Shown one piece after another: positions 32,799-33,183 of a stretch of DNA of 50,069 bases. How positions within the stretch are numbered: position 1 is the first letter of the stretch; every line of letters begins with the position of its first letter. The stretch is taken from the IMG/VR virus record IMGVR_UViG_641522650_000006; one strand, 5' to 3'. Under the pieces are notes generated by a model. It was not told where the DNA came from, did no database searches, and was given only the letters and a program-made list of their open reading frames with translations. The position numbers were made by a program, and so were the translations under genes. The stretch is from a virus (taxonomy: Duplodnaviria > Heunggongvirae > Uroviricota > Caudoviricetes).

Positions 32799-33183
32799 CA
32801 GGAAACTGTCGTTGCATGGATAAAGGGATGGAATCAAGAGTACTGGATAACGCCATTGCCAGCTTGCTGAGGGCAAAAATACAGAACCCGGTGTCAATAA
32901 GTTTTCCTTTTGACACCTCATTTTTTAACTGCTGTGTAACAGCCTGTTCTGCTGTCAGTTCCCATCTGGCAATAAGCAATTTTTCCTCATAGTCGTCTTC
33001 GCTATCGCCATCAGGCACATCGTTTTTACTTCTTCTCAGATACGATATGTAAAAATCGCGCCAGGCATCCAGATCCAGTTGCCCTCGCTTATTCGATATC
33101 GGGGCACCCGGCAATTTCTGCAATCTGCGAAGCTGGCGATCGGTCAGACTTAAATGCCTGGCAACTTCAGTCTGCGTAGCCAC
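32799..33183 (-). pseudogene. nu1: terminase small subunit nu1, 5' fragment (inverted relative to gene A)
   Basis: C-terminal part FCIFALSKLAMALSSTLDSIPLSMQRQFP resembles lambda Nu1; the ORF then runs into the IS66-family left IR. Confidence 0.7.

Follow-up and report, generated by a model that had tools for sequence, protein, structure and literature searches.

Evidence for IS-mediated splitting of nu1 and inversion of the packaging-initiation module in a lambdoid prophage of Shigella boydii CDC 3083-94

INTRODUCTION

Work with lambda/21 hybrids is said to have placed the specificity for the large terminase subunit (TerL) in the C-terminal segment of the small subunit (TerS). In lambda the specificity domain for TerL is the C-terminus of TerS, and TerL is anchored at cosN by cosB (PMC4856287). 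Inversion of DNA by transposable elements has been described for IS26 and Tn4401, where intramolecular transposition in trans gives inverted copies of the element together with an inverted segment (PMC4471558). Inversion between IS copies that depends on RecA is also known. Within Shigella, the elements IS1, IS2, IS600 and IS911 are expanded (PMC7373316).

Here we describe a lambdoid prophage contained in a stretch of 50,069 nt, referred to throughout as the window. Positions 22764–43183 of the window are identical to CP001063.1, with 0 mismatches in 20,420 nt; this is the sequence of S. boydii CDC 3083-94 (PMC2974192). Unlike lambda, nu1 is split here, and its 5′ part is inverted together with cos. 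As in the inversions made by IS26 and Tn4401, the inverted segment is flanked by inverted copies of an element, and each 8-bp target duplication occurs as a reverse-complement pair on different copies. The element differs from IS26 and the Tn3 family in that it is an IS66-family IS with a nested IS110-family IS, and at 709 bp the inverted segment is unusually short. The window shares the Shigella-expanded elements IS1, IS2, IS600 and IS911, to which IS629 is added, and multiple lesions are found in one prophage. The structure is very probably the product of an IS-mediated split of nu1 and inversion of the packaging-initiation module in the lambdoid prophage of this strain. No published description of this nu1/cos inversion was found in the literature searched (ISSso6, the IS66 mechanism and the accession numbers).

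RESULTS

Organization of the prophage

The following features locate the main regions of the prophage.

9612–10343, minus strand, CI-like repressor
17919–18740, Q-like antiterminator
20414–20663, cluster of tRNA-Met, tRNA-Arg and tRNA-Arg, downstream of the Q-like gene
37638–39566, plus strand, terminase large subunit gene A, an intact open frame of 642 aa with GpA_ATPase and GpA_nuclease domains

The replication genes lie between the repressor and the antiterminator. From the tRNAs the order continues as a nanS-p-like ORF of 626 aa, the endolysin and spanin genes and the rearranged cos/nu1 block, and then as A, W, portal, protease, decoration protein, major capsid, tail tube and chaperones. 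The product of gene A has seven amino acid differences from its homologue in Escherichia coli ARS-C301. Stx phages carry stx at the position downstream of the Q-like gene. In the window this region (20414–21535) comprises the tRNA cluster with no toxin-sized ORF; a single ORF of 118 aa (20954–21310, minus strand) precedes the nanS-p-like ORF.

nu1 is divided into two fragments on opposite strands

The nu1 gene is split at codons 127–129 into two fragments that are on opposite strands and separated by 4.3 kb.

32799–33183, minus strand, nu1 5′ fragment, codons 1–128, with a GTG start at 33183
32764–33183, minus strand, called ORF that includes the nu1 5′ fragment and extends past nu1 into the IS left inverted repeat
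37535–37666, plus strand, nu1 3′ fragment, the last 43 codons plus stop, with the start of gene A inside it
32799–32806, minus strand, inner copy of the GTTTCCTG target duplication, closing the 5′ fragment
37534–37541, plus strand, outer copy of the GTTTCCTG target duplication, opening the 3′ fragment

The ORF of the 5′ fragment starts MATQTEVARH. Its nu1 part ends SIPLSMQRQFP, and is followed by 11 residues derived from the IS (GKRKLTAVCSH) and a stop. The translation of the 3′ fragment begins FPDLTPRHLDHLK and ends IRATTE at the stop codon; in full, 37535–37666 on the plus strand reads FPDLTPRHLDHLKTLIAKGANQCARAGDKLPDLLDEYIRATTE, then stop. An earlier note, made from the sequence alone, had described nu1 as two mutually inverted pieces, the 5′ piece on the minus strand and the 3′ piece on the plus strand. 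Both the arrangement and the coordinates that it gave are exact to the base.

That note had also proposed that the pieces rejoin in one lambda Nu1-like reading frame through the duplication, and this is borne out. When the fragments are joined through one copy of GTTTCCTG an open frame of 169 aa results. The rebuilt TerS matches the Pfam profile Phage_Nu1 (PF07471) over residues 49–150 with a score of 67.9 bits (cut-off 30) and E = 1e-18, residues 1–48 being left uncovered. It is 100% identical to an intact protein, the terminase small subunit of E. coli ARS-C301 (WP_000235436.1). Compared with lambda Nu1 it is ~34% identical (169 aa vs 181 aa), and it aligns weakly with the lambda protein at the N-terminus.

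When lambda Nu1 (from J02459) is used as the query in tblastn, each of the two fragments is matched. Residues 86–141 align to 32967–32800 on the minus strand (E = 1.5e-13), and residues 140–180 to 37535–37657 on the plus strand (E = 4.5e-6). The remaining TerS ORF ends at the equivalent of lambda F140/P141. An intact nu1 elsewhere in the prophage, which would have spoken against the split, was not found, as the same tblastn query revealed no second Nu1-like stretch in the 50-kb window. A search of PDB sequences with the rebuilt TerS gave no match at E ≤ 1, lambda's solved DNA-binding domain included. The split gene is a pseudogene of the lambda Nu1 / Pfam Phage_Nu1 family.

Two inverted copies of a 4026-bp element

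The earlier note had attributed the split of nu1 to a composite insertion. An insertion does split the gene, but it is not a single one: there are two copies of one 4026-bp element, inverted with respect to each other, and a separate 8-bp duplication accompanies each copy. The element belongs to the IS66 family and has the IS110-family element ISSso6 nested in its right end.

27506–32798, minus strand, left copy on the side of the lysis genes, with IRR at 27506 and IRL at 32798, interrupted by IS600
33508–37533, plus strand, right copy, uninterrupted
33594–34013, tnpA of the right copy
34010–34360, tnpB of the right copy
34391–35983, tnpC of the right copy
27510–29028, plus strand, ISSso6 of the left copy, bounds approximate, transposase ORF at 27588–28763
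36011–37529, minus strand, ISSso6 of the right copy, bounds approximate, transposase ORF at 36276–37451
30344–31607, minus strand, IS600 (IS3 family), 1264 bp with a 3-bp duplication ACC, inside tnpC of the left copy

The inverted repeat formed by the two copies falls into two pairs (27506–30348 with 34691–37533, and 31607–32798 with 33508–34699, of 2843 and 1192 nt), which were reported as 100% complementary. In a comparison of the left with the right copy there are three mismatches in 4026 bp.

Each copy encodes the IS66-family proteins TnpA, TnpB and TnpC (DDE_Tnp_IS66) and, on the opposite strand, an IS110-family DEDD transposase, all identified with Pfam. Assignment to the IS66 family is based upon the Pfam matches of tnpA, tnpB and tnpC, terminal repeats of the GTAAG type and the two 8-bp duplications. 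The left inverted repeat begins GTAAGCGTAAACTG. For ISSso6 the assignment to IS110 is based upon the Pfam domains DEDD_Tnp_IS110 and Transposase_20, and a 99.8%-identical copy of the transposase is labelled 'IS110-like element ISSso6 family transposase' by PGAP. The names IS600 and ISSso6 are taken from the RefSeq annotation. A neighbouring IS110-family gene is called 'RNA-guided transposase' in newer PGAP annotation.

ISSso6 is located 3–5 bp inside the IS66 right terminus in both copies. A related IS66-family element that lacks ISSso6 (L011) ends GACGCTTAC, with CCGTTGACGCTTAC as the native right end; in the window, GACGCT and TTAC are parted by ISSso6. It is conceivable, though improbable, that the IS66 transposase can use a right end that keeps only these 3–5 bp of its inverted repeat, as the shared position of ISSso6 hints. 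Either the composite transposes as a unit by means of the hybrid right end, or ISSso6 repeatedly targets the IS66 inverted repeat. It is mildly unusual that ISSso6 lies in the extreme end of the IS66 element, yet two copies have separate target duplications. The 4026-bp composite is also present in the chromosome of E. coli FDAARGOS_943 and in the RMDEC465 plasmid, at 99.7–99.8% identity.

Target duplications and the restored ancestor

A second target duplication, which the earlier note had missed, lies in non-coding DNA upstream of cos.

27498–27505, plus strand, outer copy of the ATACGATA target duplication
33500–33507, minus strand, inner copy of the ATACGATA target duplication, adjoining the right copy of the element

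The segment between the copies (32799–33507, 709 bp) contains cosQ, cosN, cosB and the 5′ part of nu1, and is inverted. The 5′ piece of nu1 adjoins IRL of the left copy, and the 3′ piece adjoins IRR of the right copy. One 4-kb element with GTTTCCTG on both sides would thus amount to a plain insertion in nu1. Both 8-bp duplications form outer/inner pairs related by reverse complementation. Since each has one copy outside and one reverse-complemented copy inside, there are two insertion sites, between which the 709 bp are inverted. For two such matched duplications of 8 bp at the junctions, in the reverse-complement geometry that an inversion requires, the expectation by chance is about (4^-8)^2.

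The ancestral sequence was rebuilt by joining the window up to 27505, the reverse complement of 32807–33499 and the window from 37534 onwards. The resulting order, cosQ–cosN–cosB–nu1–A, is the same as that of lambda, and gene A overlaps the 3′ end of nu1 by 29 nt (vs 26 nt in lambda). In the reconstruction, as in the intact relatives L010 and L015, nu1 precedes and overlaps the gene for the large terminase subunit, with cos adjoining; of the split gene, the 3′ fragment alone retains this position next to gene A in the window. A 1120-bp query over both healed junctions aligned as one contiguous piece, with identities reaching 98.9%, in 1132 of the 5426 complete E. coli genomes, where YlcI/YnfO is annotated next to the small and then the large terminase subunit. 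The inverted copies, the paired duplications and the ancestor regained on re-inversion together have the character of an IS-mediated inversion.

An exact look-up of TerL led to the Logan contig ERR9716746_58 (L015), in which an identical TerL is preceded by an intact nu1 of 169 aa. It is colinear with the reconstruction with no gaps, and has one mismatch in its first 926 nt. The contig begins 1 nt after the sequence of the cosN cohesive end. The assembly graph may have broken here, at the conserved cosQ/cosN repeat; a real end cut at cos is another possibility.

Apart from the nu1 5′ fragment, the genes in or next to the 709-bp segment are IS transposases only. A programmed invertible switch, of the Hin/Gin/Cin type or a shufflon, was considered and rejected; there is no invertase gene, and complete 4-kb IS copies form the repeats.

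The cos region

The cos elements are all on the minus strand in the window.

33402–33408, minus strand, cosQ-like heptamer GGGTCCT, identical to and colinear with lambda 48473–48479
33367–33378, minus strand, cosN 12-nt cohesive end GGGCGGCGACCT, identical to lambda
33231–33329, minus strand, cosB-like region with three 9-bp repeats

The heptamer at lambda 48473–48479 is one that we take to be lambda cosQ. From ~130 bp upstream to 30 bp downstream of cosN the sequence is nearly identical to that of lambda, when aligned with the joined lambda ends. The ATACGATA site, 122 bp upstream of cosN, is itself conserved in lambda, and cosQ is left untouched by the second IS. The inversion of cos relative to A that had been claimed earlier is confirmed, with cosQ, cosN and cosB all within the inverted block and GGGCGGCGACCT present as its reverse complement.

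Downstream of this stretch the sequence diverges from lambda cosB. The three 9-bp repeats consist of CATGTCCGG at 33321–33329 and its complement CCGGACATG at 33261–33269 and 33231–33239, with spacings of 60 and 30 bp. One repeat and then two in the opposite orientation resembles the R3/I1/R2/R1 layout of lambda (PMC4856287), whereas the CATGTCCGG repeats are unrelated in sequence to the lambda R sites. On this comparison the packaging specificity probably differs from that of lambda.

Occurrence in other genomes and exchange between the copies

The ORF in which nu1 is fused to IRL was found by exact protein match on eight contigs, five of them sub-kilobase draft contigs that end inside the repeats, and the other three complete chromosomes. 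In all three chromosomes (CP001063.1, CP026762.1 and CP026867.1) the four junctions are ordered and oriented as in the inverted state, and the placement of IS600 is as follows; both the orientation of the 709 bp and this placement hinge on correct resolution of the repeats in each assembly.

CP001063.1, IS600 in the lysis-side copy
CP026762.1, IS600 in the A-side copy (L001, about 7.2–8.5 kb), with its site and orientation within the IS66 element unchanged
CP026867.1, IS600 absent

Two single-base differences between the copies occur only in CP001063.1 among the three chromosomes. A change of IS600 from one copy to the other with the orientation of the central segment retained requires two crossovers flanking IS600, by two successive inversions or an equivalent double exchange. 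As read from these assemblies, the swap implies repeated reciprocal exchange after the structure had formed, or else an error of repeat resolution in one assembly. Like the shortness of the inverted segment, evidence of such repeated exchange is mildly unusual.

The 709-bp block with its IS edges gave no record at 80% query coverage among the 5,426 complete E. coli genomes. At the same coverage neither the junction between the nu1 5′ part and the IS left repeat nor that between cos and the IS left repeat was found in any of them (0 in 5,426), and therefore both insertions are private to this Shigella lineage. The junction of nu1 with the IS left repeat had no exact match in species-representative genomes. 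No single-copy or non-inverted intermediate was seen among the genomes searched, where just three chromosomes are resolvable, all of them inverted.

Other IS elements and lesions

Further elements and a second lesion are present elsewhere in the window.

1–378, IS1 InsB-like fragment at the window start
2296–4820, IS911-like element, with IS629 nested at 3071–4380
7111–8384, IS2-like element in the early region
47658–49481, tape-measure (H-like) gene, broken at 49022/49044 into ORFs of 454 and 145 aa
49407–50069, second IS911-like copy, cutting the tape-measure gene at 49407

The names IS1, IS2 and IS911 are presumptive. The break in the tape-measure gene adds a second lethal lesion, independent of that in nu1.

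DISCUSSION

Origin of the inversion

The preferred origin of the IS-mediated inversion has two steps. A 4026-bp IS66::ISSso6 unit would have inserted at codons 127–129 of nu1 with duplication of GTTTCCTG. A second copy would have inserted nearby in the opposite orientation, 709 bp away and 122 bp upstream of cosN, duplicating ATACGATA. Homologous recombination between the inverted copies would then have flipped the 709 bp containing cosQ–cosN–cosB and codons 1–128 of nu1, a block that now faces away from A. Because homologous exchange between the copies is evidenced in this lineage by the IS600 swap, this route needs no added assumption, and on balance we favour it over formation in a single step. 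In the latter a single copy, either in nu1 or at ATACGATA, would give the same product by intramolecular replicative transposition in trans. This predicts the exact structure that is observed, comprising inverted copies with one old and one new flank each and duplications in reverse-complement pairs. The very short distance of 709 bp suits a local intramolecular event, and all three resolvable genomes are inverted, including the chromosome without IS600. However, we know of no demonstration of replicative transposition of the Shapiro type for IS66-family elements, a literature search on the IS66 mechanism found nothing relevant, and the copies do exchange homologously. A single step is a tenable origin but is somewhat doubtful.

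The 709-bp segment or IS600 might have been oriented arbitrarily in assembly, and the true structure might be plain IS insertions in nu1 and upstream of cos; the repeats of 4–5.3 kb are longer than Sanger reads, and draft contigs (L004–L008, L016 and L017) break at exactly these junctions. Yet three independently deposited complete chromosomes have the same orientation and the copies are told apart by IS600, and an artefact of this kind is very unlikely. Moreover, the non-inverted state would leave nu1 still disrupted by a 4-kb insertion. Composite transposons such as Tn5 and Tn10 are also built of inverted ISs that bracket a short passenger, and here two inverted IS copies flank such a passenger. 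It could be supposed that a unit of this kind captured the 709 bp of cos and nu1 elsewhere and arrived as a whole. Arrival as a unit is contradicted by the outer flanks, which differ (ATACGATA vs GTTTCCTG) with no direct duplication, and by the contiguity of left flank, inverted passenger and right flank in 1132 E. coli genomes and in L015. We regard this supposition as almost certainly wrong.

Consequences for packaging

The inversion leaves the ORF of the nu1 5′ fragment on the wrong strand for the late operon. Its product would be a truncated TerS that lacks the C-terminal segment that binds TerL in lambda. We infer that cos has been parted from gene A by 4 kb of IS DNA and inverted relative to it. 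The late operon would be broken by ~10 kb of IS DNA, with gene A that far from the lysis genes and its upstream partner lost. Since TerS is truncated, cos inverted and parted from A, and the late operon broken, the prophage should be unable to form a holoterminase or to package itself. The earlier note had predicted the failure to package, and from the sequence this is soundly argued. The packaging defect is over-determined, the tape-measure gene being both broken and cut by an IS, with IS1, IS2, IS911, IS629 and IS600 found throughout. As an event it is routine, one more case of the known IS-driven decay of prophages in IS-expanded Shigella.

The rearrangement explains why a small terminase ORF appears 'truncated' and on the wrong strand, and why an orphan 3′ remnant precedes gene A. 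It also provides a worked example of how an IS-mediated inversion can be read from paired target duplications that are reverse complements of each other. Recombination between long inverted IS copies, as in the IS600 swap, bears on assembly and on the calling of structural variants in IS-rich Shigella.

It is conceivable, if improbable, that the 709-bp cassette of cos and the nu1 5′ part flips recurrently in S. boydii populations, as might be suggested by the IS600 swap, and that the intact cos is used in trans by a lambdoid phage. If so, the user would be a co-resident or superinfecting phage of the same terminase specificity, and the inverted cos would direct packaging leftwards into the early region of the prophage and adjacent DNA, rather than into the head genes.

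The two IS911-like copies are also inverted with respect to each other. They lie ~45 kb apart and bracket nearly the whole prophage, and such a pair could support a far larger inversion.
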